From Verrucomicrobiota bacterium (GTDB lineage: Bacteria > Verrucomicrobiota > Verrucomicrobiia > CAIQCK01): a stretch of DNA of 64,000 nt. The notes below the pieces were generated by a model. It saw nothing but the letters and a program-made list of their open reading frames with translations, made no database searches and was not told where the DNA came from. The position numbers were made by a program, and so were the translations under genes. The DNA lies in assembly GCA_016222825.1 (NCBI GenBank), contig JACRQF010000015.1:297646-361645 (forward strand), given 5' to 3'. Shown here piece after piece: positions 2,497 through 30,415 of this stretch (positions are counted from its first letter, which is position 1; every line of letters begins with the position of its first letter).

Positions 2497-3876
2497 ATGA
2501 CGCAACTCACCTCCATGAAAACCATCATCACCTCCCTCATCGCATTGACCGTCACAATTCCGCTCCTGTCCGGCGCGGAGGCCAAAGACCCGTTCCTGCC
2601 GGCGAAGAAGCTCACCGCGCAGATGTATGACTCGAACTTCCGCGAGGGCCACGACACCTACAACGGCATGGGCACTGGCAGCGATGGTTGCATCTACTAC
2701 GTGCTCAGCACCGAGCCGCACGACCTCGGCGGCCGGATGTTCAAGTTCGACCCGAAAACCGGGAAGGTCACCTGCTGTGGCGACCTCACGGAAATCTGCG
2801 GCGAGAAGGACAAGAAGACCGTCGTGCAGGGCAAGAGCCACGTGAACTACGTCGAGGCCAACGGCAAGCTCTACTTCGCTACCCACATCGGCTACTACAG
2901 CATCGTGGACGGCATGGAGACGATGGGCATCCCGCCCGCCGGCTGGAGCAAGTATCCTGGCGGCCACCTGCTCTCCTACGACCTCAAGACCGGCAAGTTC
3001 GAGGACCTCGCCATCGCGCCCGGCGGCGAAGGCGTGCTCACGATGAGCATGGACACCAAACGCGGCCGCATCTTCTGCATGACGTGGCCGAAGGGCGAGT
3101 TCTTCCGCTTCGACCTCGCGACGAAGAACCTGAAGAACTTCGGCAAGCAGTGCGCCGAGGGCGAGAACGCCAAGGGCGAGAAATACCGCACCATCTGCCG
3201 CTCCATCGCGGTGGACCCGGAGGACGGCTCGGCGTATTTCAGCACCTCCGAGGGCACGATTCTCCAATACCGCGCCGGCACCGACGACGTCGTGAAGATC
3301 GAGGACGAGGACTTGAAGAAGGATTACTTCGGCCTCTACGAAGTCTCCAATCCCGGCCACATGGGCTACAACTGGCGGATGACCTTCTACCGGCCCAAAG
3401 ACAAGATGTTCTACGGCGTCCACGGCAATTCCGGCTACCTCTTCCGCTTCGACCCGCGCAAAAAGCGCATCCAAGTGCTCGACCGCATCACCTCCGACCC
3501 CTCCAAGGCCAGCGGCATGTTCGACCAGTTCAGCTACGGCTACCTTGGCTTCGCGCTCGGTCCCGACGGCGACACCATCTATTATCTAACGGGTGGCCCG
3601 ATCTACAAAGACGGCAAGCGCCTCAAGGGCAAGGACCGCATCGCGATGGGCGCGGCCAAGGGTCTCGAAGACCTCCACCTTGTCACCTACCACATCCCGA
3701 CCGGCCGCTGCAAAGACCAGGGTGCGATTTACTACAAGAACGGCGATCGTCCGCTCTACGTCAACTCCATCGCTGTCGGCAAGGATGGGAGCGTTTATTC
3801 GCTCGCCCGCGTGCCCGACAAGAGCCGCGTCCGCGCCGACCTCTTTTGCGTGAAGGGGCCGTTCAACGTAAAGTAG
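2497..3876 (+). CDS. secreted hypothetical protein, probable beta-propeller fold
   Basis: Long ORF 1429..3876; the upstream part is an Arg/Gly/Pro-rich high-GC artefact. ATG at 2497 begins MTQLTSMKTIITSLIALTVTIPLLSGAEA (signal peptide), followed by repeated blade-like segments. Confidence 0.65.
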   Translation: MTQLTSMKTIITSLIALTVTIPLLSGAEAKDPFLPAKKLTAQMYDSNFREGHDTYNGMGTGSDGCIYYVLSTEPHDLGGRMFKFDPKTGKVTCCGDLTEICGEKDKKTVVQGKSHVNYVEANGKLYFATHIGYYSIVDGMETMGIPPAGWSKYPGGHLLSYDLKTGKFEDLAIAPGGEGVLTMSMDTKRGRIFCMTWPKGEFFRFDLATKNLKNFGKQCAEGENAKGEKYRTICRSIAVDPEDGSAYFSTSEGTILQYRAGTDDVVKIEDEDLKKDYFGLYEVSNPGHMGYNWRMTFYRPKDKMFYGVHGNSGYLFRFDPRKKRIQVLDRITSDPSKASGMFDQFSYGYLGFALGPDGDTIYYLTGGPIYKDGKRLKGKDRIAMGAAKGLEDLHLVTYHIPTGRCKDQGAIYYKNGDRPLYVNSIAVGKDGSVYSLARVPDKSRVRADLFCVKGPFNVK

Positions 3877-4051: not shown

Positions 4052-5434
4052 ATGAAACGTTGCCTGCCGATCCTCCTGCTCGCTTGTTCCGCCGCCGTCG
4101 CCGCCGATTTCCAGGCCGGCGTCGCCAAGGTCAAGATCACGCCGCCGACGCCGTTCTGGATGTCGGGCTACTCCTCGCGCACGAACCAATCCGTCGGCGT
4201 CGTGCAAGACCTGTGGGCGAAGGCGCTGGCCGTGCGCGACCCGCAAGGCCACCGCGCTGTCATCGTCACGATGGACCTGATCGGCCTGCACAGTTCCGTC
4301 TCCGACGAGGTCTTCGCGCGGGCAAAAAAGCAGTTCAAGCTCAACCGCGCCGACGTGCTGCTGTGCTGTTCGCACACACACAGCGGGCCGGTCGTCGGGC
4401 TGAACCTGAACGTGATGTTCGACTTCAGTGCCGAGGACATGAAGCGGGTGCAGGCTTATACCGCTGATCTTGTGGACAAGCTGGTGAACGTCATCGGCGA
4501 TTCGCTGAAGGACCTGTCGCCCGCGCAACTCGCCAGCGGCCACGGCTCGGCTGGCTTCACCTCAAACCGCCGCAAGGTGCAACCCAAAGGCGTGACGATG
4601 GAGCCGAACGCCACCGGCCCGGTGGACCAGGACGTGCCGGTGCTCAAAGTGACCTCGCCGGACGGTAAGCTGCGTGCCATCTTCTTCGGCTACGCGTGCC
4701 ACAACACCACCATCAGCCCCCGCCCCGATCCCGAACTGGACTTCTACAAGATCTACGGCGACTACGCCGGCTTCGCGCAGTTGGCGGTCCAGAAGGCGCA
4801 TCCGGGTGCGGAGGCGATGTTCACGATCCTCTGCGGCGCCGACCAGAACCCGCAGCCTCGCGGCGCGCTCGATTACGCCCGGCAGCACGGCGAGGAACTC
4901 GCGGCGTCCGTGGAGAAGGTGCTGGGCGCCGAGATGAAGCCGCTCCGCGCGCCAATCCGCACGGCGTTCCAGGAGATCAAACTGGATTTCGCCAAGCACA
5001 CGCGCCAGACATTCGAGGACGAGATCAAGAAAGCCGAGGAGGCGAAGCGGCCCGATGGCAAGTTTCGCATCCGGCGCGCGAAGCAGATGCTGGCCGCCTA
5101 CGACAAAGGCCGCCCCATCCGCCAGACGCGCTACCCGGTGCAGGCGATCCGTTTCGGGAATGACTTCACCCTCATCGCGCTTGGCGGCGAAGTGGTGGTG
5201 GACTTCGCGTTGCGCAGCAAGCGCGAGTTTCCCAACGAGAACCTGATGGTGATCGGCTACGCCAACGACGTGATGTGCTACATCCCCTCGCTCCGCGTCC
5301 TGAAGGAAGGCGGCTACGAAGTGGACACAAGCATGGTCTATTACGGCCAGCCCGGGCTGTTCGCGGAGGACGTGGAGGAGAAGGTCTTTGAGGCCATCCA
5401 CCAAGTCATGGCGAAGGCCGGCGCAGGCAAGTAA
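4052..5434 (+). CDS. secreted hydrolase, neutral/alkaline ceramidase-like family (tentative)
   Basis: ORF with signal peptide MKRCLPILLLACSAAVAADF; motifs ITPPTPFWMSGY and CCSHTHSGP resemble the N-terminal domain of non-lysosomal ceramidases; family call from motif memory only. Confidence 0.65.
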   Translation: MKRCLPILLLACSAAVAADFQAGVAKVKITPPTPFWMSGYSSRTNQSVGVVQDLWAKALAVRDPQGHRAVIVTMDLIGLHSSVSDEVFARAKKQFKLNRADVLLCCSHTHSGPVVGLNLNVMFDFSAEDMKRVQAYTADLVDKLVNVIGDSLKDLSPAQLASGHGSAGFTSNRRKVQPKGVTMEPNATGPVDQDVPVLKVTSPDGKLRAIFFGYACHNTTISPRPDPELDFYKIYGDYAGFAQLAVQKAHPGAEAMFTILCGADQNPQPRGALDYARQHGEELAASVEKVLGAEMKPLRAPIRTAFQEIKLDFAKHTRQTFEDEIKKAEEAKRPDGKFRIRRAKQMLAAYDKGRPIRQTRYPVQAIRFGNDFTLIALGGEVVVDFALRSKREFPNENLMVIGYANDVMCYIPSLRVLKEGGYEVDTSMVYYGQPGLFAEDVEEKVFEAIHQVMAKAGAGK

Positions 5435-5452: not shown

Positions 5453-6724
5453 TCAGGCTTTCCGGATTGTGCGCGTCTTGGGGTCGTAGGTCGTGCGCCG
5501 GCCGAACTTGTAGGATTCCACCGCCATCAGACACGTGACGGAGTGCAGATAGCCCGCCTCGATCGGCGCGCGCGTCGGTTTGCCGGTGCGCATGCATTGC
5601 AGCCAGTCGAGGAAGTGGTCGGGCGTCTCGATCGGCTTCACGTCGTTGACGCCGCGGATGCCGCCGTCGCGCTTCGGCCCGCCCTCAGCGCTGTAGGTCG
5701 GCGCGCCCCAGTTGTCCATGATGAGCTGACCCTTCTCGCAGAAGTAACGGTGACGGTTGCCGCCGCCGTTGCCGAAGTTGCTTGAGTAGGCGACCATGAA
5801 GCCCTCCGGATAAACCCAGAGCGCCTCGACGTGGTCGGGGCAGGTGAACTTGTTCTCGTCCTTCCACGTGAAGACACCGCCGTTGCAGACGCAGCTCTTC
5901 GGGAACTGGACGCCGGTGATGTAGTTGTAGAGGTCAATGAAGTGGCAGCCGAGGTTCGCGACGGGGCCGTCGGTGTAGTCGAGGTAGCCATACCAGCCGG
6001 TATAGACCTCGGCGTCGAACGGCCGCTTCGGGGCGTTCATCAGGAACTCGCCCCAGTCCACGTCCTCTTTCCTTACCTGCGCGGACTTCGGGAGACTGGC
6101 TTTGACGTAGCCATACCAATACGGTTTCTCGCCGTTGCGGCATTGCTCGATGCGCGACACTTTGCCGAGAATGCCGGACTTCCACAACTCGCGGCAACCG
6201 GTGCTGGTGGGCAGGCTGCGGGTCTGCGTGCCGACTTGCACGACGATGCCCGCTGCTTTCACCGCGTCCACGGCGCGGCAAAGCTCTTCCATGCTCCGCG
6301 CCATCGGCTTTTCGACGTAGCAGTGTTTCCTGGCCTTGGCGGTGGCTTCGAGCTGGATCGCGTGATGATGGTCGGGCGAGGCGATCATGACGGCGTCAAT
6401 GTCCTCGCGCGCCAGCACGTCGCGGTAGCTGACAATCTGCTTCACGTCGGTGCCATACCACTTCTTGCACATCTCGGCGGCTTCCTCGCGCGCGAGCCGC
6501 CACGGGTCGGAGACGGCCACGAACTCGACGTTCTGCGCCTTGTCGTGCTTGTGAACGCCCTCCATGTGCGCTTTCCGGCCGCGACCGCCGCAACCGATCT
6601 GCGCGATGCGGATGCGGTCGTTCGCGCCCATGACGCGCGCGTAACTCTGCGCGGTCATGGAGGTGGCCGTCGTGGCGACGGCGGTGGTCTTGATGAAGTT
6701 TCTGCGGTTGACGTTCGTGTTCAT
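5453..6724 (-). CDS. Gfo/Idh/MocA-family oxidoreductase with TAT signal (paralog 1 of tandem pair)
   Basis: ORF 5453..6724; N-terminus MNTNVNRRNFIKTTAVATTA (TAT motif), GCGGRG dinucleotide-binding motif. Confidence 0.85.
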   Translation of the reverse strand: MNTNVNRRNFIKTTAVATTATSMTAQSYARVMGANDRIRIAQIGCGGRGRKAHMEGVHKHDKAQNVEFVAVSDPWRLAREEAAEMCKKWYGTDVKQIVSYRDVLAREDIDAVMIASPDHHHAIQLEATAKARKHCYVEKPMARSMEELCRAVDAVKAAGIVVQVGTQTRSLPTSTGCRELWKSGILGKVSRIEQCRNGEKPYWYGYVKASLPKSAQVRKEDVDWGEFLMNAPKRPFDAEVYTGWYGYLDYTDGPVANLGCHFIDLYNYITGVQFPKSCVCNGGVFTWKDENKFTCPDHVEALWVYPEGFMVAYSSNFGNGGGNRHRYFCEKGQLIMDNWGAPTYSAEGGPKRDGGIRGVNDVKPIETPDHFLDWLQCMRTGKPTRAPIEAGYLHSVTCLMAVESYKFGRRTTYDPKTRTIRKA

Positions 6725-6741
6725 GGTTGGTTGCTCCTTGT

Positions 6742-7995
6742 TCAGGCTTTCAGGATGGCGCGCTTGGCGTGGTCATAGGTCGTGCGGCGGCCAAACTTGA
6801 ACGATTCCACCGCCATCAGGCACACGACGGAATGCACATAGCCCGCCTCGATGGGCGCGCGCGTGGTCTTGCCGGAGCGCATACATTGCAGCCAATCGAG
6901 GAAGTGGTCGGGTGTCTCGATCGGCTTGACCGGCGTGATGCCGCGGATGCCGCCATCGCGTTTCGGGCCGCCCTCGGCGCTGTAGGTCGGGGCGCTCCAG
7001 TTGTCCATGATGAGCTGGCCCTTCTCGCAGAAGAATCGGTGGCGGCTGCCGCCGGAGTTCCCGAAGTTGCTCGAGTAGGCGACCATGAAGCCCTCCGGGT
7101 AAACCCAGAGCGCCTCGACGTGGTCGGGGCAGGTGAACTTGTGCTCGTCCTTCCACGTGAACACGCCGCCGTTGCAGACGCAGCTCGTCGGGAACGTCGC
7201 GCCGGTGATGTAGCTGTAGAGGTCAATGAAATGGCAGCCGAGGTTTGCGATCGGGCCGTCGGTGTAATCGAGATAGCCATACCAGCCGGAGATGAGGCTG
7301 GCGTCGAACGGCCGCTTCGGCGCGTTACCGAGGAATTCCGCCCAGTCCACGTCCTCCTTCTTGATGTCCTTGACGTAATGATACCAGTAGGGACGTTCGC
7401 CGTTGCGGCATTGTTCGATGCGCGACACCTTGCCGAGGATGCCCGACTTCCACAGTTCATTGCAGCCGGTACTGGTGGGCAGGCTGCGGATTTGAGTGCC
7501 GACCTGCACGACGATGCCCGCCGCTTTCACCGCGTCCACGGCGCTGCAAAGCTCCTTCATGTTGCGCGCCATCGGTTTCTCGACGTAGGCGTGCTTCTTC
7601 ACCTTCGCAGCGGCTTCCAGGTGCATGGAGTGATGATGGTCCGGCGAGGCGATGAGCACGGCGTCCACGTCCTTGCACGCCAGCACGTCGCGGTAGCTGG
7701 AGAACTGCTTCACGTTGGTGCCATACCATTCCTTGCATTGCGCCGCAGCCTGCTCGCGCGCGATGCGCCACGGGTCGCTCACCGCGACGTATTCGACGTT
7801 CTCGGCCTTGTCGTGTTTGTGGATGCCCATCTCCATGTGCGCCTTCCGGCCGCGCCCACCGCAACCGATCTGGCCGAGGCGGATGCGCTCGTTGGCGCCC
7901 ATAATACGGGCGTAGCTGCGCGCCGTCATGGCGGTGGCGGCGGTGCTGACGGCGGCGGTCTTGATGAAATCCCTGCGGTTGCAAACGGTGCTCAT
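6742..7995 (-). CDS. Gfo/Idh/MocA-family oxidoreductase with TAT signal (paralog 2 of tandem pair)
   Basis: ORF 6742..8352; upstream part is implausible (Pro/Ser/Thr-rich). Internal ATG at 7995 gives MSTVCNRRDFIKTAAVSTAA; by eye roughly 80% identical to the 5453..6724 protein. Confidence 0.85.
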   Translation of the reverse strand: MSTVCNRRDFIKTAAVSTAATAMTARSYARIMGANERIRLGQIGCGGRGRKAHMEMGIHKHDKAENVEYVAVSDPWRIAREQAAAQCKEWYGTNVKQFSSYRDVLACKDVDAVLIASPDHHHSMHLEAAAKVKKHAYVEKPMARNMKELCSAVDAVKAAGIVVQVGTQIRSLPTSTGCNELWKSGILGKVSRIEQCRNGERPYWYHYVKDIKKEDVDWAEFLGNAPKRPFDASLISGWYGYLDYTDGPIANLGCHFIDLYSYITGATFPTSCVCNGGVFTWKDEHKFTCPDHVEALWVYPEGFMVAYSSNFGNSGGSRHRFFCEKGQLIMDNWSAPTYSAEGGPKRDGGIRGITPVKPIETPDHFLDWLQCMRSGKTTRAPIEAGYVHSVVCLMAVESFKFGRRTTYDHAKRAILKA

Positions 7996-13487: not shown

Positions 13488-13755
13488 TCTCGTGCGTGTT
13501 TCAGGCAGCAGCCACTCTCCGCGGACCAGGAGAAACAACACATGACGAAACAGGAAGCCCGCTGGGCCGCGTCTCAAACAAATCGCATCTCAGCGCGCAA
13601 GCTCATGGGAGGACCAGAATGCGCGGGCCGCGGCAAATGGAGAGAGCATCTATGTGCCAGTTCCGGTGTTATCAACCGCAGTATCTTTCAATCGAATATC
13701 CGATGTGGCCCGGAAACGTTGCCAGATAAGATGAAACGAAAACGAGGACAAGACC

Positions 13756-14763
13756 GTGAACACACACAACGAACAACTGACCCGCCGCGAGTTTGTGAAA
13801 AGGGTTACGCAGGTGGCTGCCGCCGCGCCGCTCGTCGCCCGCGCCGGTGAGGAAGCCCGGCCGCGTGGCTCGCGGATTTCCTATTACTGCAACGGCGAAA
13901 TTCACGTCGGTGTGCCCGGCCGGCCGGAAGGGAAGCCGCTCACGAACGGCCATTGGGATTTCAAGCCGTCGTGGTCGAAGACCGGCAACCACCTCGTCTG
14001 TTTCCGCAGGCTCAAAGACGATCCCGTCGTCGTCAACTGGAAGAGCGCGATCTTCATCATCAACGCGGACGGCACCGGGTTTCACACGTTGAGCGACGGC
14101 ACGCACACGGATTTCAATCCGACGTGGACGCGTGATGGCCGCAACACACCGATCTGGAACCGCAAGAACGCCAAAACCGCCGGCTTCCACGTGGTGCAGA
14201 GTAAGGTGGGCGCCAAGCCGGGCGAAGAGGTCGCCATCACCGACGAGAGTTTTCCCAACTGGGCGCACTCGTGCCTCATGGACGGAAGAATTGTGGTCGG
14301 CTCCCGGCACCCGACGCTGGGTTCAAGCCTGTTCTTGCTGACCCGCAGGGAAAGGGGAAAGCCACTCTACGAGCGCGTTCAATGCGAGTTAACTGCCAAG
14401 GGCAGCTTTGCCCGGCTCAGCGTTTCTCCCAGCGAAAAGAAGGTCTGCTTCGAGTTCATCCCGTTCGAGCGAGCGAGAGAAATCAAAGGCGGAGAAGCCG
14501 GCCACACGCTCTACGTCGCGGACCTCGATGCGCGCGCGCGCACGATCACGAACCTCAAGCCGTTCGCCAACGAGGCCGGGAAAAAGATTTGGTTCGCGTA
14601 TGCGCGCTGGATTGATGGCGAGTCGGCGGTGGTCTATCACTCCGGCGAGACCGGCAAGAACCAACTCTACGTTTATCGCTTGGAAGACGGCTCGACCAAG
14701 CGCGTGTCAACAAACCCAACTGCCGACTACCGCTATCCGCACGGCGAAGCCGCGCCTTGCTGA
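13756..14763 (+). CDS. TAT-signal protein, TolB-like beta-propeller (hypothetical)
   Basis: ORF with N-terminus MNTHNEQLTRREFVKRVTQVAAAAPLVARA (TAT motif); PD40-like repeats (…NPTWTRDGRN…). Confidence 0.7.
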   Translation: MNTHNEQLTRREFVKRVTQVAAAAPLVARAGEEARPRGSRISYYCNGEIHVGVPGRPEGKPLTNGHWDFKPSWSKTGNHLVCFRRLKDDPVVVNWKSAIFIINADGTGFHTLSDGTHTDFNPTWTRDGRNTPIWNRKNAKTAGFHVVQSKVGAKPGEEVAITDESFPNWAHSCLMDGRIVVGSRHPTLGSSLFLLTRRERGKPLYERVQCELTAKGSFARLSVSPSEKKVCFEFIPFERAREIKGGEAGHTLYVADLDARARTITNLKPFANEAGKKIWFAYARWIDGESAVVYHSGETGKNQLYVYRLEDGSTKRVSTNPTADYRYPHGEAAPC

Positions 14764-15477: not shown

Positions 15478-17005
15478 GTTTCGCGAAACGGTTGAGGATC
15501 TCGATGCCTTTGTCGGCGAGGACGTCGCCGGCGGGTTTCTTGAACGGCGGGCGGAACTTGGTGTAGCGGTAATGCGCGCTCATGTATTCGCGGTCGCCGG
15601 TGTTCGGGCCGTCGGTGAGGTAGCCGTGGGAGACGTTGACGTAACCGCACGGGATCGCCAGCGGCAGCGGCGAGCGGCTGCGGATTTGCCGGCCGATTCC
15701 CTGGAACGGCTCGAAAGGCATGCCGACGATGCCGACATCGCCGAGCCGCAAGACTTGGATTTCCACTTCGAGATGCTTGGGCACCGTGTCGGCCTTGCCG
15801 GTCTGACGCAAATCGAGCGCCCATCGGCTCCACGGCAGGACGGCCTCGACCAGCTTGCCGCGATAGGCGGGCGTGAGTTCGGTCGGGAAGTTCAAGCCCA
15901 CACACGCCAACGTGTTCTGGTCGCCAGCCGCCGCGCGGCGGCTGAAGTCCTCCATCTCGGCGATCTCGGCCTTCAGCGTTTTCTTGGAGGGCAGCGGCCC
16001 CAGCGGTATCCGCGCTTTTTCCGCGGCGTAGTCCAGACCGTCGCGGCGGGACGGTTTGAGTTGGCCCAGCGCCTTGATGTAGCTCTCGCCGAGCATCCGC
16101 CCGTATTTCTCCGAGAGCGCGACATCACCGCGGAACATCCCTTTGGAATTCACCTCGCCGGCGCAGCCTTGCAGGAAGCTGACCGCCAACGGCTTCGTCG
16201 GCGAGAGATGGCTCGCCACGACATCGCACGCCACCTGCGGCCAATCACCGAAAACCACCGGCTTTTCCGGGTGGTAGCAGGTGCAGGGATGACTGGTGAA
16301 CTGCGCCAGCGCAGTGACCGGCTCGCCCCGCGTGTTCTTCAGCACGACGATGGGCGCCTGGCGGTCAATGTCGCCGTTGAAGTCCACGCCCATCAGGTCG
16401 CGGTCTTCCTCGCGCATGAGATAGGTCGAGCCGTCGGCGCGGCGGCCTTTGCGATTGTAGCTGATGCGGCCCTCCGCCCCCTCGGCCCACCACACCGTCA
16501 CGGGCTGGAGCATCGCGGGCAAGCGCCTGACGTGGCTGCGGAGTTTCGCTAGCAACTCTTCGCCAACCGGCAGCAGCTTCGCTTCCGGCACGCCTTCCGA
16601 CGGTGGGATGCGGTAGGTCTCGTAGGCTTCGATGTGGTTGCTGCTCACCTTCAGGTCGGTGTGATTGTGCGAGACGAACAGGATCACGTTCGCAACCGGC
16701 AACTTGAGGTCGTCGGCGAGCGTCCGGCGGAACATCGCGCTCACGTTTGCAGCCTTCGGCGAGTTCAGATGCGTCGTCACCAGACACAATCGCAGCCCGC
16801 CGTCCTCCAATAGCGTGACCGTGGTCTTCAACGGCCCGGCCACCTTCTGCACGACGGCCCCCGTCTTGCCAGCCGTCGGCCCGCCAGCTTCCGGCATGAT
16901 CGCGAATTCCAGCGAAGCCGCACGCAGTCGCGGATGCTCGACAGGCGCAGCCCCAGCCGCCATCGCGAAGCCGAGGAACAACAGCAGGCAAGTGAGCTTG
17001 TTCAT
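15461..17005 (-). CDS. secreted hydrolase, possibly distantly ceramidase-like (hypothetical)
   Basis: ORF 15461..17092; ATG at 17005 gives MNKLTCLLLFLGFAMAAGAAP signal peptide; C-terminal region resembles that of the 4052..5434 protein. Overlaps the start of the acyltransferase gene by 17 nt. Confidence 0.6.
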   Translation of the reverse strand: MNKLTCLLLFLGFAMAAGAAPVEHPRLRAASLEFAIMPEAGGPTAGKTGAVVQKVAGPLKTTVTLLEDGGLRLCLVTTHLNSPKAANVSAMFRRTLADDLKLPVANVILFVSHNHTDLKVSSNHIEAYETYRIPPSEGVPEAKLLPVGEELLAKLRSHVRRLPAMLQPVTVWWAEGAEGRISYNRKGRRADGSTYLMREEDRDLMGVDFNGDIDRQAPIVVLKNTRGEPVTALAQFTSHPCTCYHPEKPVVFGDWPQVACDVVASHLSPTKPLAVSFLQGCAGEVNSKGMFRGDVALSEKYGRMLGESYIKALGQLKPSRRDGLDYAAEKARIPLGPLPSKKTLKAEIAEMEDFSRRAAAGDQNTLACVGLNFPTELTPAYRGKLVEAVLPWSRWALDLRQTGKADTVPKHLEVEIQVLRLGDVGIVGMPFEPFQGIGRQIRSRSPLPLAIPCGYVNVSHGYLTDGPNTGDREYMSAHYRYTKFRPPFKKPAGDVLADKGIEILNRFAKHEDGK

Positions 17006-17053
17006 GGCAAGCCGCAGCCTGCCACCATCCGCTGTCCGCGCGCCACAAGAAAA
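16998..17053 (-). repeat. copy B of the ~56-nt conserved 5' block
   Basis: See copy A; located at the start of the 15461..17005 gene. Confidence 0.7.
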
Positions 17054-17189
17054 CACCACGCATAGCTGTGTTGGCACGCCTTGGGATTTCACTCGGTTGA
17101 CGCAAAGAAGTTTCTCGTCTATCTATCGAAACACATCACCCTGTCTGCGGTGGTGGAGAACAACAATTTTACTGAATCGCACCCGCCTC

Positions 17190-18011
17190 GTGAACATCCC
17201 ACTCGAAGACAATTTCAACGACGTTCTCGGCAAAGCCCTGCGCGGTTTGAAGCTTTTGCCCGCCCAACTCGCGTCCCGGGCCGGCGTTTCCGAATCGGAT
17301 GTGAAGAAAGCCCTCGCGGGTGAGTTCGATGAAGCCGTCGTCCGCAAACTCGCCCCCGTCCTCGGCCTCGGCGCGGAGCAGCTTGTCACGCTCGGCAGGA
17401 AAGCGTGGTATCCGCCGCCCCACGAAATCGCGGGGCTTGCTCTGTTCAACACGCCGTTCGCCGATTTCACGGTCAACGCCTATCTCACTTGGGACGTCAA
17501 GACCCGGCAAGCCGTCGCATTCGACACGGGCACTGATTGCGGCCCGATGTTGAGAACCGCGAAGGAGAACGGTCTCGACATCGTCCTCATTTTGATCACC
17601 CACATCCACGGCGATCACATCGCCGACCTGGCGCGGCTGAAGAAGGAAACGGGCGCGCGCGCTTTCGTCTCGGAATTGGAGCCAACGGAAGGCGCAGAGT
17701 TGTTCACGGCGGGCAGGGTGTTTCACGCCGGCGGCCTCGCGATTGAGTCGCGCCAGACCAGCGGCCACAGCAAAGGCGGCACGAGCTACATCGTCGCGGG
17801 TCTCGAAAAGACCCTGGCCGTCGTTGGCGACGCGATGTTCGCGGCCTCGATGGGTGGCGGACTGGTTTCCTACGAGGAAGCGCTCCGCACCAACCGTCAG
17901 CAGGTTCTTTCGCTGCCGGACGACACCATCCTGTGCCCCGGGCACGGGCCGCTGACGACGGTGGGCGAACAGAAGACGCATAACCCGTTTTTCCCGGAAT
18001 TCAACAAGTGA
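17190..18011 (+). CDS. helix-turn-helix domain fused to MBL-fold metallo-hydrolase
   Basis: ORF 16665..18011 with implausible upstream part; N-terminal HTH-like segment (LGKALRGLKLLPAQLASRAGVSESDVKKALAG) then HxHxDH motif (ITHIHGDHI). Start uncertain: GTG at 17190 chosen, no in-frame ATG nearby. Confidence 0.65.
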   Translation: MNIPLEDNFNDVLGKALRGLKLLPAQLASRAGVSESDVKKALAGEFDEAVVRKLAPVLGLGAEQLVTLGRKAWYPPPHEIAGLALFNTPFADFTVNAYLTWDVKTRQAVAFDTGTDCGPMLRTAKENGLDIVLILITHIHGDHIADLARLKKETGARAFVSELEPTEGAELFTAGRVFHAGGLAIESRQTSGHSKGGTSYIVAGLEKTLAVVGDAMFAASMGGGLVSYEEALRTNRQQVLSLPDDTILCPGHGPLTTVGEQKTHNPFFPEFNK

Positions 18012-21842: not shown

Positions 21843-24800
21843 CTATCGCGGCAACGACGCGGTCCGCCGCGAGGCGCGCAAGGTCCGCAATCCCACAGCC
21901 GCTTGGTCCGCCACGAGCACGGCGGGATGCTCGTCGAGCACGCGGGTAAGCAGAGCTTCGATTCCCGGCGCGTGGGTTTCGGTCAGGCCGGCCAGCGCTC
22001 CAGTTCGCAGCCAGATGTTGTCGCTGGCCAACAGACGGCGCACTTCGGGATGCTCGATGTTTCGGGCGAGCCGGGCGATGGCCTTGGCTGCCGGATAGCC
22101 CAGCCCCATTCCCAACGGCCCGTGCATGCCGGGGAAGTTCTCCGCTTGGGCGTATCGCACCAGCGCCGGCAGCGCATCGGCCACGCCGCGTTGCGCAAGG
22201 GCCTCGCACGTCCAGTAAAACCCAACCGTCTCGGCGAGCTTGGCGTAGGCATCCAGTTTCTTTAGCAGCAGCGGATTCAAATCGGCGTGCTTGCCCGATA
22301 GCAGTTCCCGCAATGCGAGATAATTGGCAAACGGGTAAGGTGAATCAAGCAACCGCTGCAACATCGGCGGCGCAGCATCAGTATAGCGCGCCGACAACTC
22401 AACGACCGCGCGGTCTAGAGGGTGAATGCCAGTGACCATCATCCGCGTCGCGCCGGGCGCCTGGTTGTTCCCATTGTTCAGGTTGCGGTAGTGGTCCTTC
22501 TTGAGACCTTCGGCAATGTCGCGTTCGAGCGACGCGAGGCTTGGCGCTCCCGGCGATGCTCGATCCTGTCGCGTTTCCACGACTGGCCCCGGCCACTTCA
22601 GACCGCGCGGCGGATACCACGCTTCGTAGGGCATCGGCGGGGGCAGCTTGATTTCCGGCACGCGATGGCCGGCGATGCGCTGGGTTTGTTGGATGGACCG
22701 CAGCGACTCCAAAGCCTGGCGTCGCACCACGGAGATCGGGTCGCGAGTGGCGATCTCGACCAGCAGGTCAATCGCGTCGGTCTTGCCGCGGGTCCCGAGT
22801 CCCACCGCGAGTCCGTAGCGCACGTCGCGGTAGCGCGTTATTGGATCGGCGAATGTCCGCAACTGCGCCACGTCCGCTGCGTGCCGGGCGAGCGCCATGA
22901 CGAGGTAGCACTTGTCGCGGAAGTTCGTTTCGAACCGCCCTTTGCCGATGGACATGATCTCCTTGAAATCATAGGGCTTGGCAGCTTCCGTCCGCAGCGC
23001 CGCGGCGGTCTTGGGACCGAAACCGAGCCGGTGAAGGAGCACGGCCCCGTCAATCCGCTCCCGCCAATTCTTGCTGGCCAGACAGGGCGCGACCAGTTCG
23101 TCAGGCACTTCCGATTGCTCGACGGCGAGACAGCCCAAGAGCCAGAGCGCCTGCTCCGGCTCGATCCGCTTCACCACCGGGAACGGGTGGCCGTGTTCGC
23201 TAAACGGGCGCTCCAGATTGATGCCCTCGCGAAGTTTCACATAGAGCGGATCCTGCTCCGGCGCGGCGTCACCACGCAGCACGTCGGCCAGCAACGCGAC
23301 TGCGTGCCGCCGCAGCCCCGCACGTTCCAACAAGAGCCGCACCAGTAACACACGTTGCGACTCGGGCCGGAGGCGGTCCTCGTAGCGCGGCTTCTCCAGA
23401 AATGTGCCGGGCAACAAACCGATCAACAGCGGCACGTCCTTCAGCACGGGTTTCGCGCCAGCCAGAACGAGGCCATGCAACCAGGCGTATTCTTCCGGCC
23501 GCGGCCCGTGCTGGAAGTAGCGAGCCAAGTAGCTGGGCCGCTTGGGAACCATCTCGTGGACCATCCGCCACAACGCCTCGATTGCCTGCGGTGTTCCAAT
23601 GCAACCCAGCGCGAGCGCTGCTTCGAACGCGTGATCTTGATGCTCCGGCCGCGACAGCCACGGAATCAGCAGCGGCACTGACGACGCATCGCGCATCCAG
23701 CCCGCCGCGCGAACCGCGCCCAACGCGGGCGGACGACCCGCCATGTCATTTCGCTTCCCTTCCACCGGATCGAATTTGACAGGCGGCGGCATGGGAGCCT
23801 GCAACGCCGTGCGCACGACCTGCCGGGCCGAATCCAGCGCGGCTGTTCCCAAGCGCCCGACCGCTTCAAACCACCGGTCGTTCAGTTCGTCACCCGCCTT
23901 CTGCCCGTGGCCGCACAATGCCGTGGGGCCTTTGCCAATCAGCTTCGCCAGTCCCTCCGCGCCGCCTACATCCGCAAGCAGCTTCGCATAGAACTTCACT
24001 CCATCATGGAGTGGTACGCAGGCCGTGATCGTCTCCAACGCAGCCGCCGCATGGAACCGAACCTGCCAGTCCGAGTCTCCGAGAGCTTTGCAGAGCGCAA
24101 GCGCCGTCTCCGGCGTGCCGAGCCGTGTCAGCGCCAGCGCGGCGGCGCGACGCACCTCCACCGTCTCGTCCGCGAGCAACCGGGCGATGGCGCCGCCGTC
24201 TTGTCGCGCTCCATCCTCCATCGTCATCAGCGTCTCGCAGCCGAGCCGCCGCAATTCCGGGTCCGCGTTGCCCAACCACGGCCGATAAATGGACTCCTCA
24301 CCCACGCGGGCTTGGCAACGATATTCCTCAAGTTCGTTGCGGCGATAGAGAATGTCGGTCACGTCAAGCCCGACCTGGACAGGCTCGCGCACGACAGGTG
24401 AGTGCAAAGCCGTGTGCGCAGGCGCGTCGTCCTGCGGCGCGTGGCAGCCTTGGCACGACTTGGTCTCGCCGGGTCGCGACGTGACGTAGCTCATCTCCAT
24501 CACGTTCTGCCGCGAGCCGACGGGCGCCGACGTGACAGGGTAGTTCCAGTCGAACGCAATCCGCCGCTGTGCCGCGTCCAGCGGTTCCACGAACAAGCCC
24601 GTGTCCGCCGGCGCTTCAAAATACGCCGAGCCATCCGGGAGCACGGGCACGATGCCGAGACTGCGCGTCGCAAGGCTCGTGTGGCTCGCAGAAGTCACTG
24701 CGGTCGGCAACGCTTCGATCACGCGGTAGTAACGGACCTTGCCCAGCACCGCCGCGACGTGTGGATTGTCGGAGCGGCGCGCGTTGAAGATCGCCATGCG

Positions 24801-26051
24801 ACAGCGGCCGGTGACCTGCACGAGGCTGGAATCTTTCGCAGAATCCGAAAACCCGCCCTTTGGCGCGAGCATCGTCGGTCGGGGGCGCTCCAGCAAGATA
24901 GGCCGCGCATCAAACTCGACCGTGTCTGGCCGATTGAACACTAGTTTCACCTCGCGCGTTTTCGGATCGGCCACGTAGATGCCCAGATCGCGCGCGCCCG
25001 GCTGCGTCGCCGAGAACAGGAACCGCCCGTCCGGCAGCGGATACGGCGTGGTTCTCGATCCCAGCGGCGAGAGATGAACGCGATGGGTCGCACCGCCGAG
25101 TTGAATCGTGGTCGCGCATGGGAAGACCGGCGAGAGCGCCGCCGTCGGAGTGAGCCCGCGCCGCACGTCGAGGATACACGGCCCCAATTCCGACAGCACC
25201 AGCAACGTCCCGTCGGGCATCTCACCCGCCTGCGCGTAGGCCAGGCCGGAGTGCCGCTCGCGGTTGTAGAACCGATAGCCGCCGATGCCGAAATAGTGGC
25301 TCTCGTCGGTGCCGTCGGGCCGGATGGTCATCAGGTAGTTCTCGTGCTTGTCGAGCGGCGGGACGTTCAGATGAAACGTGTCCCACAGCGTGAACAGAAT
25401 ACGCCCGTCCCGCAGCACCGTCGGGTCGAACACCGTGCCGGGATTGAACGTGAGTTGCTGCATCCCCTTCCCGTCGCTGTCCATGATCCAGAGCGTCTCC
25501 GTCCGCTCCTCGTGGTATTCATCGAGATAGCCATTGCGGTCGCTGACGAAGACGATCCGCCCGTCCGGCAGATACACTCCCGAAACGTCGTTGAACGGCC
25601 CGTCGGTCAACTGCACGAGGTTCAGCCCGTCCGCGCCGATCTCGTAGAGATGAAACCAATCCTCTCCGTCGCGCCGCATGCTGAACAGAATCCTGCGCCC
25701 GTCATAGGACGGCTCCGGGTCGAAGACTTCACCCTCCGTCAAATGGGTGATGCGCCGCAGTGTGCCGTCCGGCTGCGCGGGGATGAGCGTGTAGAGATTG
25801 CGTCCGGACCGCGAAGGCGTCGTCGTCCGCTCCAACGGATGCAAAGTGGTCCCGCGGTGGAAAATGTAACCTTCCTTCCAATGCGCCGTCCCCGGCCGCC
25901 CTTCCCACAAATGATGCGGTCCCAGAATATCGTCCGACACAAAGACGATCCCCGGCAGCCGATCATCCGCCCGGCCGCAGATCGCGCAGGATAGCAACGC
26001 CACGAGCGCGAGAAATGCCTCGAACATGGCTCGTCTGGACATCGGCGGCAT
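21843..26051 (-). CDS. large multidomain protein: N-terminal beta-propeller, single c-type haem site (CxxCH), C-terminal HEAT repeats (PVC-type)
   Basis: ORF 21843..26099 (1418 aa); signal peptide from ATG at 26051 (or 26042); propeller-like repeats (YLPDGRIVFVSDRNG, RDGRILFTLWD); CQGCH haem-binding motif; multiple HEAT-like repeats (…EVRRAAALALTRLGTPETALALCKALGDSDWQVRFHAAAAL…). Confidence 0.8.
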   Translation of the reverse strand: MPPMSRRAMFEAFLALVALLSCAICGRADDRLPGIVFVSDDILGPHHLWEGRPGTAHWKEGYIFHRGTTLHPLERTTTPSRSGRNLYTLIPAQPDGTLRRITHLTEGEVFDPEPSYDGRRILFSMRRDGEDWFHLYEIGADGLNLVQLTDGPFNDVSGVYLPDGRIVFVSDRNGYLDEYHEERTETLWIMDSDGKGMQQLTFNPGTVFDPTVLRDGRILFTLWDTFHLNVPPLDKHENYLMTIRPDGTDESHYFGIGGYRFYNRERHSGLAYAQAGEMPDGTLLVLSELGPCILDVRRGLTPTAALSPVFPCATTIQLGGATHRVHLSPLGSRTTPYPLPDGRFLFSATQPGARDLGIYVADPKTREVKLVFNRPDTVEFDARPILLERPRPTMLAPKGGFSDSAKDSSLVQVTGRCRMAIFNARRSDNPHVAAVLGKVRYYRVIEALPTAVTSASHTSLATRSLGIVPVLPDGSAYFEAPADTGLFVEPLDAAQRRIAFDWNYPVTSAPVGSRQNVMEMSYVTSRPGETKSCQGCHAPQDDAPAHTALHSPVVREPVQVGLDVTDILYRRNELEEYRCQARVGEESIYRPWLGNADPELRRLGCETLMTMEDGARQDGGAIARLLADETVEVRRAAALALTRLGTPETALALCKALGDSDWQVRFHAAAALETITACVPLHDGVKFYAKLLADVGGAEGLAKLIGKGPTALCGHGQKAGDELNDRWFEAVGRLGTAALDSARQVVRTALQAPMPPPVKFDPVEGKRNDMAGRPPALGAVRAAGWMRDASSVPLLIPWLSRPEHQDHAFEAALALGCIGTPQAIEALWRMVHEMVPKRPSYLARYFQHGPRPEEYAWLHGLVLAGAKPVLKDVPLLIGLLPGTFLEKPRYEDRLRPESQRVLLVRLLLERAGLRRHAVALLADVLRGDAAPEQDPLYVKLREGINLERPFSEHGHPFPVVKRIEPEQALWLLGCLAVEQSEVPDELVAPCLASKNWRERIDGAVLLHRLGFGPKTAAALRTEAAKPYDFKEIMSIGKGRFETNFRDKCYLVMALARHAADVAQLRTFADPITRYRDVRYGLAVGLGTRGKTDAIDLLVEIATRDPISVVRRQALESLRSIQQTQRIAGHRVPEIKLPPPMPYEAWYPPRGLKWPGPVVETRQDRASPGAPSLASLERDIAEGLKKDHYRNLNNGNNQAPGATRMMVTGIHPLDRAVVELSARYTDAAPPMLQRLLDSPYPFANYLALRELLSGKHADLNPLLLKKLDAYAKLAETVGFYWTCEALAQRGVADALPALVRYAQAENFPGMHGPLGMGLGYPAAKAIARLARNIEHPEVRRLLASDNIWLRTGALAGLTETHAPGIEALLTRVLDEHPAVLVADQAAVGLRTLRASRRTASLPR

Positions 26052-26095
26052 TGTCGCTGCCTCTCCGCAGCGTGCAAGCGCAAAACCCTCTCCGA

Positions 26096-28042
26096 TCATT
26101 CTGACGCGGCGCCGGTGAGCGCAACTTGCGTCTTCAGTTTCAGCCGCTGCACCGGCTGGTCAGTGCGCAGGACGACGCACGCGTGCTGCGTGATCGTGTT
26201 GGGCGCGAGCGTCGCGTCGGGCATGGACTCGATGCGAGCCGCAACCGCTTGGTCTGCCAAGTAGGTGACTGACACGTCGCCAGCCGTGATCTGGCCCGCG
26301 CTGGCGCGACTTGGCGCTTCCGCCGGCACGCCGAGATGCCAGCGGAACTGCACGATGTCGGGCTGCTTCAACTCGACCTCGTCTTCGATGGTCACGGAGG
26401 TTTGGCTCCATTCCACGCGCCGCTTCCATTTGACGACTGACTCGTAGCAGCCGGACACGTCCACGGAAGCCGCACCGCCCGATTCGTCCATCCGCTCGAC
26501 GGTGATCGGAGCCACGCGCCGCTCCTTCGTGAGCACTTGGCCCGCTTGCTTCAACACGGCAGGCGTGAGCTTCTCCAGGGCGGCGTCGCCGACCTGCAAC
26601 ACGTTATGGCCGGCGATGCTGCGCAAGTGCGTGGCGTTGTTCGGCACGGCGTAGTTGAGCGTGCCGGCCTCGATCAGCAACGCGCGCCGGCCGATGATGA
26701 AGTTCACATGGCCGCGGTCCATGTGATCGTGAAAATCCGTCGCATGGCCGCCGCGCAGCCAGAGGCCGGCCGCCGTGTCGTCGTCCCAACTGCTGCGCCA
26801 GTTCAGCCGCGCCGCCTTCGCGTAGTTCGCAAACAGCGGCGGCGCGCCCGCCCGCGAGGCCGGCATGTTCGCGGCGAGAATCGCGTCGAGCGTTTCGCCG
26901 AACCTGGCGCGCGTGCGCAGTCCCCACAGTGCGTGCGGACTGCCAGTCACGAAAGCTGCGGTCGCGAGAAGGTTCCGGTCGCGCGTGAGGTTTCCCCTCG
27001 AGCTGCCCGGCGCGTCGAACGCGTTGATCAGAAATCCGCCGGGCTGGAAATGATGGACAAGCCACGTCGGGAACTTCTGTAGGAATGGATGCGCCAGCAG
27101 CCGATTGTCACTTGTCCGCGCCGTCGCGCGCGCGATGGAGTAGAGGCTCTCCAGTGACAGACCGGAATAACGCAGTCCTTCGACGAACTCGCCATCGCTG
27201 CCTTGCACATCCATGGACCGGAGCAGCCGCGCAATCCCGGCCTCGCAGGTTTCGCGATGCCGGTCCACGCCGAGAAACAGGCAGGCTCGGACGAGAGCTT
27301 CGTTCGGCAGAATCCACTGATTGCTGTGCGCGGCCTCGCTGCGGACATACCACGGCCGCTTCGTCGCCCAATCCTTCTCCATCAAGGCCAGTTCGTCGGC
27401 CAGCCGCGATTCCAGTGCCGCGCGCAGGTCCGGCGAAATCGTGCCGGGCGGGAGCAGATCCACCGTGTCCGCAATCACCCGCACCAGCCAGCCGGTGCCG
27501 AGCCACGCGCCGTCGTCGCCCTTGTAGTGGGGCTTCGCATTGTTCAACGACCAGCCGCGCCGTTCCAGCGGAGACCACGCCGCCAACTCGGCGAGTTGCG
27601 CGCGGACGCGCTCGAACAACGCCGCATCGCCCGTCAGCGTGGCCGCCGCCGCAAGACGCGGAAGCTCGACCTTGAGCAAAGCGCCCGCATAGTTGTCGCC
27701 CTGCGAGAGGCAGAATATCTCCCACTCCTTGTCGGGAAGCGCCGACATCTGCGGTGGGCGCGTCTTGTATTTCAGCGTCACCCGCCACTTCCGCAGCTCC
27801 TCAAGCGTTTGCGGCCGGCGGAGCACCGGCTTGGCCGCGTCGTGTCTTGCCCCCGCGATGAGCTTCGCGCGCGCGCCCGCAAGCGCGGAATTGGTGGCAA
27901 CTGCCGAGAGAAGCTGTCTCAGCGGCGCGCGAGCAAGCTCATCGGGGGCGCGGTTGTCCGCTCTCGCGCATGAGCAGAACGCGACCGCGAGCGCCAGCAG
28001 CGAGGATGGCGCCCGCGGCAGATTCAGTCTGGGGATTGTCAT
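26096..28042 (-). CDS. heparinase II/III-like protein (polysaccharide lyase-like)
   Basis: ORF 26096..28096; ATG at 28042 gives signal peptide MTIPRLNLPRAPSSLLALAVAFCSCARA; C-terminal GGHATDFHDHMDRGHVNFI segment is typical of the heparinase II/III C-terminal domain. Confidence 0.75.
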   Translation of the reverse strand: MTIPRLNLPRAPSSLLALAVAFCSCARADNRAPDELARAPLRQLLSAVATNSALAGARAKLIAGARHDAAKPVLRRPQTLEELRKWRVTLKYKTRPPQMSALPDKEWEIFCLSQGDNYAGALLKVELPRLAAAATLTGDAALFERVRAQLAELAAWSPLERRGWSLNNAKPHYKGDDGAWLGTGWLVRVIADTVDLLPPGTISPDLRAALESRLADELALMEKDWATKRPWYVRSEAAHSNQWILPNEALVRACLFLGVDRHRETCEAGIARLLRSMDVQGSDGEFVEGLRYSGLSLESLYSIARATARTSDNRLLAHPFLQKFPTWLVHHFQPGGFLINAFDAPGSSRGNLTRDRNLLATAAFVTGSPHALWGLRTRARFGETLDAILAANMPASRAGAPPLFANYAKAARLNWRSSWDDDTAAGLWLRGGHATDFHDHMDRGHVNFIIGRRALLIEAGTLNYAVPNNATHLRSIAGHNVLQVGDAALEKLTPAVLKQAGQVLTKERRVAPITVERMDESGGAASVDVSGCYESVVKWKRRVEWSQTSVTIEDEVELKQPDIVQFRWHLGVPAEAPSRASAGQITAGDVSVTYLADQAVAARIESMPDATLAPNTITQHACVVLRTDQPVQRLKLKTQVALTGAASE

Positions 28043-28332
28043 TGTTCCATTCCGTCTGCGTCGCCGGCAGGGCTGCGTCAAGGGCAGGAGAACCACGCGG
28101 CCGGCCAGTTCGCAGCCGGCTTGTGAACGCGGGTTGTTGGTTCGACGGCCATCATGCGCGGCACTTTAAGGTTTCGCGGCCGGAAAGACAACACCAGCGG
28201 CATTGGAGGGCGGGTTCGCGCCTGGAACAAATCGCAAGCCAAGACAGGGGCCGTGCTGTTCCACGTCCTCGGCGGCAACGACGTGGCAGGGAATCCAAAG
28301 ACCGTTTGAGAAGCTTCAGGACGGCTCGCCCA

Positions 28333-29250: not shown

Positions 29251-29337
29251 AGCCGTTGAGCGTAGCGAGCCGAAGCGGCGGTCACAAGGAGGAAAGTGGA
29301 GGCGGAAAGAAGGTGACGCTTTGATGACGGATTTTTG

Positions 29338-29373
29338 GGGCAAAATCGTGATTTTGCCCTCCATGATTTTGCC
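29338..29373. promoter_or_regulatory. operator-like element: palindrome GGGCAAAATC-GT-GATTTTGCCC plus a third direct half-site GATTTTGCC
   Basis: Read directly: 10-bp perfect arms at 29338-29347 and 29350-29359, third half-site at 29365-29373; lies between the DUF4339 gene stop (29382) and the MBL hydrolase gene. Confidence 0.45.
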
Positions 29374-29381
29374 GTTCCCCG

Positions 29382-30385: not shown

Positions 30386-30415
30386 GGTTTCTGGGATGGC
30401 TCGGCGCCAAGCACG

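Follow-up and report, generated by a model that had tools for sequence, protein, structure and literature searches.

Two long-retained tandem pairs of Tat-signal Gfo/Idh/MocA genes in an uncultured Verrucomicrobiia bacterium and their possible part in periplasmic glycoside cleavage

Why should an uncultured Verrucomicrobiia bacterium keep two tandem pairs of similar oxidoreductase genes close together in its genome, and what might their products do? The question is raised by a stretch of 64 kb with 63.4% GC (contig JACRQF010000015.1, positions 297,646 to 361,645), referred to here as the window. Each pair encodes two proteins of the Gfo/Idh/MocA (GFO) fold that carry a twin-arginine (RR) signal motif. 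Both pairs are old, retained and conserved tandem duplicates, and their products are predicted to be exported to the periplasm by the twin-arginine translocation (Tat) pathway. With slightly better than even confidence, they are read here as periplasmic NAD-bound dehydrogenases that feed an oxidise-then-eliminate route of glycoside cleavage.

The high GC content of the window gives long open reading frames (ORFs) in all six frames, and genes were therefore picked by third-position GC content (GC3) and Pfam matches. This ORF and Pfam scan yielded seven GFO genes with an RR signal motif (875-2341, 5453-6724, 6742-7995, 35727-37091, 37076-38446, 44517-45833 and 53473-54771), one more than a first-pass annotation of the sequence had counted. 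The seven genes belong to five subfamilies with mutual identity of at most 31%. The two adjacent paralogue pairs described in that annotation were recovered at the same positions, with pair 1 on the minus strand, pair 2 on the plus strand, and all four ORFs intact and with Pfam GFO matches. The tandem-pair observation is real and far beyond chance. The four genes are as follows.

5453-6724, minus strand: copy B of pair 1, Tat-signal GFO protein of 423 residues with a Pfam GFO match.
6742-7995, minus strand: copy A of pair 1, Tat-signal GFO protein of 417 residues with Pfam matches PF01408, PF22725 and PF19051.
35727-37091, plus strand: G1 of pair 2, Tat-signal GFO-fold protein of 454 residues with PF22725 and the motifs FMEKS and EMDIH.
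37076-38446, plus strand: G2 of pair 2, Tat-signal GFO-fold protein of 456 residues and the more divergent copy, with the motifs TRREFAG and EMNIH.

Copies A and B are separated by 17 bp, and each is preceded by AGGAG. They share 81% amino acid identity by BLASTP and 83.7% nucleotide identity, and copy B carries a 7-residue insertion (residues ~209-215) right behind a K-P-Y-W motif. The GTG start of G2 overlaps the G1 stop by 16 nt; an alternative TTG start lies at 37097, and the RR motif is kept with either. G1 and G2 are 73% identical in amino acids (BLASTP) and 74% in nucleotides; the first-pass annotation had put both pairs at roughly 80% by eye.

The age of the duplicates was approached through Nei-Gojobori estimates of nonsynonymous (dN) and synonymous (dS) divergence. 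These gave dS 0.52, dN 0.11 and dN/dS 0.21 for pair 1, and dS 0.80, dN 0.22 and dN/dS 0.27 for pair 2. The pairwise alignment and dN/dS calculation proposed with the first-pass annotation have thus been carried out, and the copies turned out neither identical nor broken, indicating neither assembly duplication nor pseudogenes. An origin of the pairs as assembly artefacts or decaying duplicates retains practically no probability, since it is refuted by the data and no support for it was found: the copies differ at 16% and 26% of nucleotides, the ORFs are intact, dN/dS is low at the values above, and the pairs are present in independent assemblies (L004, L008-L012 and L019 for pair 1; L087 and L090 for pair 2).

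The duplications had been called recent, which the synonymous divergence and the comparison with other genomes contradict. A metagenome contig (L004), ~91% identical in DNA, holds the sulfatase, a 416-residue GFO gene, a 423-residue GFO gene and a convergent ceramidase-like gene in the same order. Between the window and L004 the pair-1 orthologues are 96-97% identical, whereas the paralogues are ~80% identical in both genomes. Orthologues of copy A are 92-96% identical in L004, L008, L009, L010 and L019, and the A-B pair recurs in Verrucomicrobiia metagenome-assembled genomes (MAGs; L008-L012 and L019). In a neighbour-joining tree, Pirellulaceae (Planctomycetota) sequences occur in the A clade as well as in the B clade, and some single MAGs carry one A-clade and one B-clade member on separate contigs. 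As the tree has no support values, an ancient duplication and a later transfer between Verrucomicrobiota and Planctomycetota fit it alike; in either case the duplication is not recent.

Recent gene conversion between A and B was considered and rejected, because the nucleotide identity of the A-B paralogues is equal within a genome (83.7%) and across the window and L004 (84.0%). Third-position identity between A and B rises from ~0.65 to ~0.85 over codons 240-340 in all within-genome and cross-genome comparisons. A rise that recurs in every comparison is either older than the split of the two genomes, as in old gene conversion, or reflects strong codon constraint.

The duplication of pair 2 is likewise old. 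G1 is closer to relatives elsewhere (91%, 85% and 79%) than to its neighbour G2 (72%), which sits on a longer branch. Orthologues of G1 (90-95% identical) are found in L087 and L090, and those of G2 (85-92% identical) in L087-L090, paired with G1 in L087 and L090. The pair-2 family evolves very slowly, with 70-75% identity across Planctomycetota, Verrucomicrobiota and Omnitrophota.

All four proteins begin with an RR motif followed by a hydrophobic stretch (NRRNFIK and, in copy A, NRRDFIK in pair 1; TRREFLQ and, in G2, TRREFAG in pair 2). Copy A scores above the cutoff of both models for this signal (TAT_signal PF10518, 24.4 bits; TIGR01409, 17.6 bits), and copy B falls just below that of PF10518. 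The Rossmann domain PF01408 is matched in pair 1 with 63 and 61 bits and contains GxGxxG; copy A further shows the motifs IGCGGRG, VEKP, RPYW and NLGCH. In pair 2 only the C-terminal PF22725 is matched and PF01408 is not reached, though LIGCGGRG is present. Across the pairs, the C-terminal domain matches are PF22725, PF19051 and PF02894. Models predicted by AlphaFold from family alignments have high confidence except in the signal peptides, with a predicted local distance difference test (pLDDT) score of 87.2 for copy B and 86.5 for G1. Both show the GFO fold, as do the Foldseek matches of G1.

Several residues are invariant within each family, namely E138-K139-P140 and H261 in the pair-1 family and E154-K155-S156 and H256 in the pair-2 family. 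The Asp that closes the second Rossmann strand is likewise invariant (D73 in the pair-1 family, D80 in the pair-2 family). In Rossmann folds an Asp at this position favours NAD over NADP, so the proteins are expected to bind NAD.

In the Protein Data Bank, pair 1 is matched best by the glucoside-3-dehydrogenase AL3 of Alistipes, in sequence (8tdf/8tdh, E 6e-18) as well as, for the copy B model, in Foldseek (8TDF, E 1.5e-22). The sugar site of AL3 comprises Gln161, Arg192, Trp195, Asp248, His252 and Tyr349 (10.1101/2024.03.25.586180). These residues were mapped via an HMMER alignment, in which, at an offset of 29, the Q, R, W, D and H of AL3 coincide exactly with the published numbers. The corresponding residues are Q168, R201, W204, N251 and H255 in copy A, and Q167, K200, W203, N257 and H261 in copy B. 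Pair 1 therefore keeps four of the five mappable sites, with Arg192 retained in copy A and changed to K in copy B; Asn takes the place of Asp248, and Tyr349 lies beyond the alignable region. The same Asn-x3-His variant occurs in the P2B11 glucuronide-3-dehydrogenase (Oxido1) as Asn205/His209 (10.1101/2024.03.25.586180). Together with the RR motifs and the fold, this likeness fits the first-pass description of periplasmic sugar-oxidising enzymes. For five of the seven window GFO genes, those of pair 1 among them, the best NCBIfam model is BT_2158_fam (glycoside 3-dehydrogenase, NF058561).

Copies A and B differ in a narrow region. Only seven alignment columns are invariant within the A clade and within the B clade yet differ between them: H206/G205, S314/G320 and five columns within the 7-residue insertion of copy B. 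Of these, six lie in one loop right behind the R/K-P-Y-W motif, beside the predicted sugar site. This clustering of clade-fixed differences by the sugar-binding motif suggests a difference in substrate fit rather than redundancy, such that the two copies may act on related, non-identical substrates. It lends slight support to the diversification proposed at first pass.

The most informative evidence on what the enzymes might work with comes from their neighbours. Relatives of pair 1 were collected by scanning one genome per species, which gave 534 coding stretches, and the best 79 loci were kept. Neighbour genes in these 79 loci were found by targeted tblastn, since all-against-all ORF clustering was swamped by shadow and fused ORFs at high GC. 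Among the distant relatives (<69% identity), which are mostly from Planctomycetota with some from Bacteroidales and Opitutales, a TIM-barrel gene lies directly downstream on the same strand in 31 of the 39 loci with room for it. Pfam scans of three of these loci (L037, L044 and L067) assigned the protein to PF01261, and an RR signal was seen in the L044 copy. The partner conserved across the family is hence a Tat-exported xylose-isomerase-like TIM barrel, which the earlier annotation had not noticed. Tandem arrays of two or three GFO copies occur in none of the 45 distant loci and in nine of the 34 close ones.

Pair 2 has xylose-isomerase-like TIM barrels beside it in the window itself. Downstream of G2 its cluster continues as follows.

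38505-38837, plus strand: small ORF of 110 residues, no Pfam match, between pair 2 and XI1.
38933-39775, plus strand: XI1, xylose-isomerase-like TIM barrel with RR signal, PF01261 67.5 bits, possible lipobox AAGC.
39794-40690, plus strand: aldose 1-epimerase family protein, PF01263 171 bits.
40697-41578, minus strand: XI2, second xylose-isomerase-like TIM barrel, PF01261 63.5 bits, RR signal SRRQFIA, convergent on the pair-2 operon.

For XI1 the TAT_signal match is sub-threshold and TIGR01409 is above cutoff. Inspection of the N-terminus showed no signal peptide in the epimerase, which is thus probably cytoplasmic. XI1, the epimerase and XI2 are syntenic in L087, L088 and L090. The whole run of G1, G2, small ORF, TIM barrel and epimerase, with the convergent TIM barrel and a squalene/phytoene synthase, is present at 85-96% amino acid identity in L087 and L090 and partially in L088. 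The small ORF is conserved in L087 (85%) and L090 (76%) and absent from L088. A 114-residue ORF behind the G1 orthologue of L005 was tried as its counterpart and proved unrelated. The squalene/phytoene synthase gene (41583-42686) stands directly behind XI2, and does so too in L087, L088 and L090.

The immediate neighbours of pair 1 in the window are of another kind.

8153-~9613, minus strand: formylglycine (type I, Cys-type) sulfatase with Sec signal, PF00884 192 bits and SGSH_C.
4052-5434, plus strand: short neutral-ceramidase-like metallohydrolase (460 residues) with Sec signal, PF04734 68.5 bits, convergent on pair 1.

The sulfatase has its formylglycine motif CSPSR at residue 129 of the long ORF, which is open to 9787; alignment with the 486-residue L004 orthologue puts the likely start at ~9613. 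It lies upstream of pair 1 on the same strand, as the first-pass annotation had described, with a gap of 157 bp to copy A, and gap and conserved gene order suggest that sulfatase and pair 1 are probably co-transcribed. Scans for promoter and terminator consensus sequences near the two pairs did not rise above shuffled expectation. A sulfatase directly upstream of the A-B pair was found only in L004, L009, L010 and L019, and the few other sulfatase matches in the loci are on the opposite strand or at other locus positions. The link to glycan degradation drawn at first pass fits the window neighbours (the sulfatase, the xylose-isomerase-like TIM barrels, a heparinase II/III-like protein and BNR_4), while its sulfatase part holds for close relatives only. 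The gene at 4052-5434 was also tried as a sulfatase beside pair 1 and rejected, as its Pfam match is ceramidase-like and it is on the opposite strand.

Other members of the pair-1 family vary in their surroundings. In L019, a groundwater Verrucomicrobia MAG, a GH16/PF06439 gene resembling 3-keto-disaccharide hydrolases (L019:7471-8283) comes next after sulfatase, GFO_A and GFO_B and shares their strand. PF06439/DUF1080 is the family of the hydratase BT2157/AL2 (10.1101/2024.03.25.586180; PMC8121099). The convergent neighbours in L008 and L009 are DUF4432 and amidohydrolase genes. In L004 an FGGY kinase gene and an SGL (gluconolactonase-like) gene stand directly upstream of the sulfatase (L004:2966-7843), whereas in the window FGGY and SGL genes are located at ~50145-53453, ~40 kb from the sulfatase and with pair 2 in between. 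This separation indicates an insertion or rearrangement with a breakpoint just upstream of the sulfatase start (window 9690-50145).

The favoured reading draws on a recently described mode of glycoside cleavage, in which a Tat-exported GFO protein with tightly bound NAD acts together with a TIM-barrel lyase and a hydratase (10.1101/2024.03.25.586180; PMC8121099; PMC10628242). In the AL3 route the sugar is oxidised at C3, elimination is carried out by a sugar-phosphate-isomerase-like protein, hydration is performed by a DUF1080 protein, and the 3-keto sugar re-oxidises the cofactor; AL3 crystallises with NAD, and added NAD(P)(H) has no effect on its reaction (10.1101/2024.03.25.586180). A second cluster, in which two oxidoreductases are combined with two isomerases, cleaves both glucuronides and 6-sulfo glycosides (10.1101/2024.03.25.586180), and in Agrobacterium two TIM-barrel proteins (lyase and hydratase) work with a Gfo reductase (PMC10628242). 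The same parts in the pair-2 cluster, and the TIM-barrel partner of the pair-1 family in most of its distant relatives, favour a role of the pairs as periplasmic glycoside dehydrogenases, probably acting at C3.

In such a mechanism the GFO enzymes would fold and load NAD in the cytoplasm, which would account for the use of the Tat route. In the periplasm the GFO enzyme would oxidise a ring hydroxyl of the glycoside, most likely the C3-OH. The resulting ketone would acidify the C2-H, and a metal-dependent xylose-isomerase-like TIM-barrel lyase could then cleave the glycosidic bond by beta-elimination. The glycal would be hydrated, and the same bound NADH would reduce the 3-keto sugar, making the cycle redox-neutral. 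For pair 1, the sulfatase may first strip a sulfate ester, after which A and B would act, with a lyase encoded elsewhere in the window's lineage. The analysis itself establishes the genes, their signal motifs and fold, the age of the duplicates and the selection on them, and the conserved neighbourhoods; which ring position is oxidised, on which substrates, and how the sulfatase is coupled to the dehydrogenases are inferences.

A number of results weigh against this reading. The identity of pair 1 to AL3 is only 19%, and in Foldseek the aldose-aldose oxidoreductase (5A02), glucose-fructose oxidoreductase (GFOR), levoglucosan dehydrogenase and DgpA (DgpA1) come close to it. On the equivalog model BT_2158_fam, pair 1 scores 111 and 96 bits and does not reach the cutoff of 750, which makes the two proteins relatives of the BT_2158 family and not members. 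Pair 2 has no match to that model; inositol dehydrogenases come nearest to it among structures and NCBIfam models, with scores far short of the cutoff, and its more distant relatives are singletons without TIM-barrel neighbours. Close relatives of pair 1 (at least 69% identity, the window included) have an adjacent TIM barrel in only two of 29 loci with room. XI1 and XI2 were considered as orthologues of the usual TIM-barrel partner of the pair-1 family and rejected, as there is no significant similarity. No PF06439 match was obtained among the window ORFs scanned with Pfam. The case for co-transcription with the sulfatase consists of the 157-bp gap and the kept gene order, and the sequence does not fix the regiochemistry (C3 as opposed to C1 or another position).

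This last point bears on the suggestion that pair 1 oxidises C1, as a periplasmic aldose dehydrogenase or an oxidoreductase of the aldose-aldose or glucose-fructose type, with the desulfated sugar passing to a lactone and on through lactonase, uptake and kinase. The SGL and FGGY genes directly upstream of sulfatase, GFO and GFO in L004, both also present in the window, would suit such a path, as would the Foldseek scores of 5A02 and GFOR, nearly equal to that of AL3; GFOR is moreover the classic Tat-exported GFO enzyme with bound NADP. Yet pair 1 conserves the Q, R/K, W and H of the AL3 sugar site, the partner conserved across phyla is a TIM-barrel protein of lyase type and not a lactonase, one orthologous pair (L019) is followed by the 3-keto-disaccharide-hydrolase-like gene, and the lactonase and kinase of the window are 40 kb off. 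C1 oxidation is on this evidence considered unlikely. The scarcity of an adjacent TIM barrel in the close pair-1 clade would also be expected of self-contained NAD-dependent glycosidases, comparable to those of glycoside hydrolase families GH109 and GH4 and to NAD-dependent sulfoquinovosidases, which carry out every step, from oxidation through elimination and addition of water to reduction, in one active site and need no separate lyase. Enzymes of the GH109 type share the GFO fold and bound NAD; 2IXA (GH109) and 8QC2/8QC8 (NAD-dependent glycoside hydrolase) are among the matches, and GH109 calls based on PF01408 are common in Verrucomicrobia but unspecific (PMC5615132). The similarity is restricted to the Rossmann domain (2IXA, E 2e-4, copy B residues 36-160; 8QC2, E 9e-6, residues 63-190), AL3, DgpA and levoglucosan dehydrogenase rank higher, and a separate TIM-barrel protein is the firm partner of the more distant family members, all of which leaves the glycosidase explanation very improbable.

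For pair 2 the competing proposal is that it acts with the TIM barrels on cyclitols (inositol-type polyols), G1 and G2 being periplasmic counterparts of IolG and XI1 that of IolE. Foldseek places myo- and scyllo-inositol dehydrogenases at the top for G1, and among NCBIfam models G1 and G2 score best on IolG, XI1 on IolE and XI2 on IolO. The scores are far under the cutoffs: on IolG (TIGR04380, cutoff 355) pair 2 reaches 51 and 41 bits, less than the 79 and 69 bits of pair 1, and XI1 has 63 bits on IolE against a cutoff of 290. Furthermore, the Iol enzymes are cytoplasmic while G1, G2, XI1 and XI2 carry RR signals, and the cluster contains no other iol genes. Oxidation followed by beta-elimination or dehydration is common to glycoside and cyclitol systems, so homology does not separate the two; with scores, signals and gene content taken together, a cyclitol substrate appears improbable.

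Within the favoured reading of glycoside oxidation and elimination, the ceramidase-like gene beside pair 1 offers a further lead. The protein at 4052-5434 belongs to a large family of free-standing ~460-residue proteins, and its SHTHSGP motif aligns with ATHTHSGPG of the Pseudomonas aeruginosa neutral ceramidase 2ZWS. A ceramidase-like domain follows in 19 of the 36 distant pair-1 loci with room for it. In 18 of the 20 loci with both (Planctomycetota, L043-L085; e.g., L044:7302-9569), TIM barrel and ceramidase-like part form one ORF with no stop between them, indicating a fusion protein. The window protein shares only 29% identity with the fused domain, and the connection with pair 1 therefore remains a lead. 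In the literature no account was found that links ceramidase-like proteins to such clusters or describes a fusion of this kind. It may tentatively be suggested, as a rather doubtful possibility, that the pair-1 family represents an undescribed variant of oxidative cleavage in which a truncated ceramidase-like metallohydrolase is integral, where it might stand in for the DUF1080 hydratase or cleave an N-acyl or N-sulfo group off an amino sugar. The Planctomycetota would have it fused to the TIM barrel; in the window's lineage the TIM barrel would have gone from the locus, the dehydrogenase would exist as two specialised copies that might heterodimerise, and the locus would be flanked by the sulfatase and a free-standing ceramidase-like gene.

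The remaining GFO genes of the window are single, and three lines describe them.

875-2341 (probable ATG at 899), plus strand: single Tat-signal GFO gene, identified by Pfam.
44517-45833, plus strand: single Tat-signal GFO gene, identified by Pfam, NF058561 145 bits, directly after a PQQ_2 beta-propeller gene.
53473-54771, minus strand: single Tat-signal GFO gene, identified by Pfam, NF058561 133 bits.

The gene at 875-2341 is the nearest of the seven to the BT_2158 family (NF058561, 342 bits against the cutoff of 750). It is absent at the syntenic position in L004, where a DegT aminotransferase gene is followed directly by a 459-residue ORF. The corresponding ORF of the window (2497-3876, plus strand), flanked by the first GFO gene and the ceramidase-like gene, is conserved in L004; it encodes a Sec-signal protein of 459 residues with no significant Pfam match, perhaps a beta-propeller from a repeat pattern judged by eye. 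A clear twin-arginine motif (LTRREFVK) also marks ORF 13735-14763, for which Pfam gave no match.

Elsewhere in the window, at 21843-28165, a 1438-residue protein with HEAT, PD40 and hydrazine-synthase-alpha-like segments adjoins the heparinase II/III-like protein, and both are encoded on the minus strand. Two adjacent membrane proteins at 29894-31507 each have an N-terminal GYF_2 domain, and one also has DUF4190. Long candidate ORFs with metallo-beta-lactamase-fold matches occupy 16665-18011 and 28333-30018, in stretches left empty by GC3 gene picking, with provisional starts and frames. A secretion or pilus-type cluster (55971-63850, minus strand) comprises a T2SSE ATPase with N-terminal FHA, two T2SSF proteins, a second FHA protein and a four-repeat PEGA protein. 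Rfam and tRNA scans of the window gave no matches.

Bacteria of the Planctomycetes, Verrucomicrobia and Chlamydiae (PVC) group have very many unassigned Tat-signal Gfo/Idh/MocA genes, often adjoining sulfatases. If such genes belong to the non-hydrolytic oxidise-then-eliminate route, known from gut Bacteroidota since the studies of 2021-2024, surveys of carbohydrate-active enzymes (CAZymes) underestimate glycan degradation in environmental Verrucomicrobia and Planctomycetota. The locus adds two well-defined subfamilies with conserved partners, and pair 1 offers a clean case of tandem paralogues retained over a long time, with their differences mostly in one loop by the sugar site.

Among known systems, the AL3 and BT2158 clusters of Alistipes and Bacteroides thetaiotaomicron (10.1101/2024.03.25.586180; PMC8121099) are alike in GFO fold, twin-arginine signal and predicted bound NAD. 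They also have GFO genes side by side, as in BT2158/BT2159, and pair-1 relatives adjoin a xylose-isomerase-like TIM barrel and once a PF06439 gene. They differ in that the window pairs are close paralogues (73-81%), whereas BT2158 and BT2159 come from different subfamilies; pair 1 of the window has a sulfatase upstream and neither a PF06439 gene nor an orthologous TIM barrel beside it; and the host belongs to Verrucomicrobiia instead of Bacteroidota.

Zymomonas mobilis GFOR and the Caulobacter aldose-aldose oxidoreductase are periplasmic GFO enzymes like those predicted for the window pairs, with near-top Foldseek scores. GFOR is exported by Tat with NADP bound (PMC8121099); the binding is tight, and the enzyme runs a ping-pong redox cycle. 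Both enzymes oxidise free aldoses at C1 and have other genomic partners, whereas the invariant Asp of the window families points to NAD and not NADP. The GH109 alpha-N-acetylgalactosaminidase 2IXA has a GFO-like fold and bound NAD, and its label is often given automatically to such Verrucomicrobia genes; similarity confined to the Rossmann domain provides no evidence of GH109 membership.

The two-step logic of the favoured mechanism, in which a GFO or other enzyme oxidises C3 and a metal-dependent TIM barrel then carries out beta-elimination or hydration, is also found in DgpA/DgpBC, LgdA/LgdB and the Agrobacterium AtOGE/AtHYD/Gfo system (PMC10628242). DgpA and LgdA are among the best matches of pair 1, yet at 16-18% identity, and their substrates are C-glycosides or levoglucosan. 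Both are cytoplasmic enzymes. The P2B11 glucuronide-3-dehydrogenase (8TDI) takes Foldseek rank 20 for pair 1 with 17% identity and is absent from the listed matches of pair 2. Its cluster (Oxido1, Oxido2, Iso1 and Iso2), with two oxidoreductases and two TIM barrels, has the same make-up as the pair-2 cluster; it cleaves 6-sulfo and other anionic glycosides, fitting a sulfated-glycan setting, and its Asn-x3-His variant is shared with pair 1. Nothing categorically new was found, and the genes are distant new representatives of a kind of system described since 2021.

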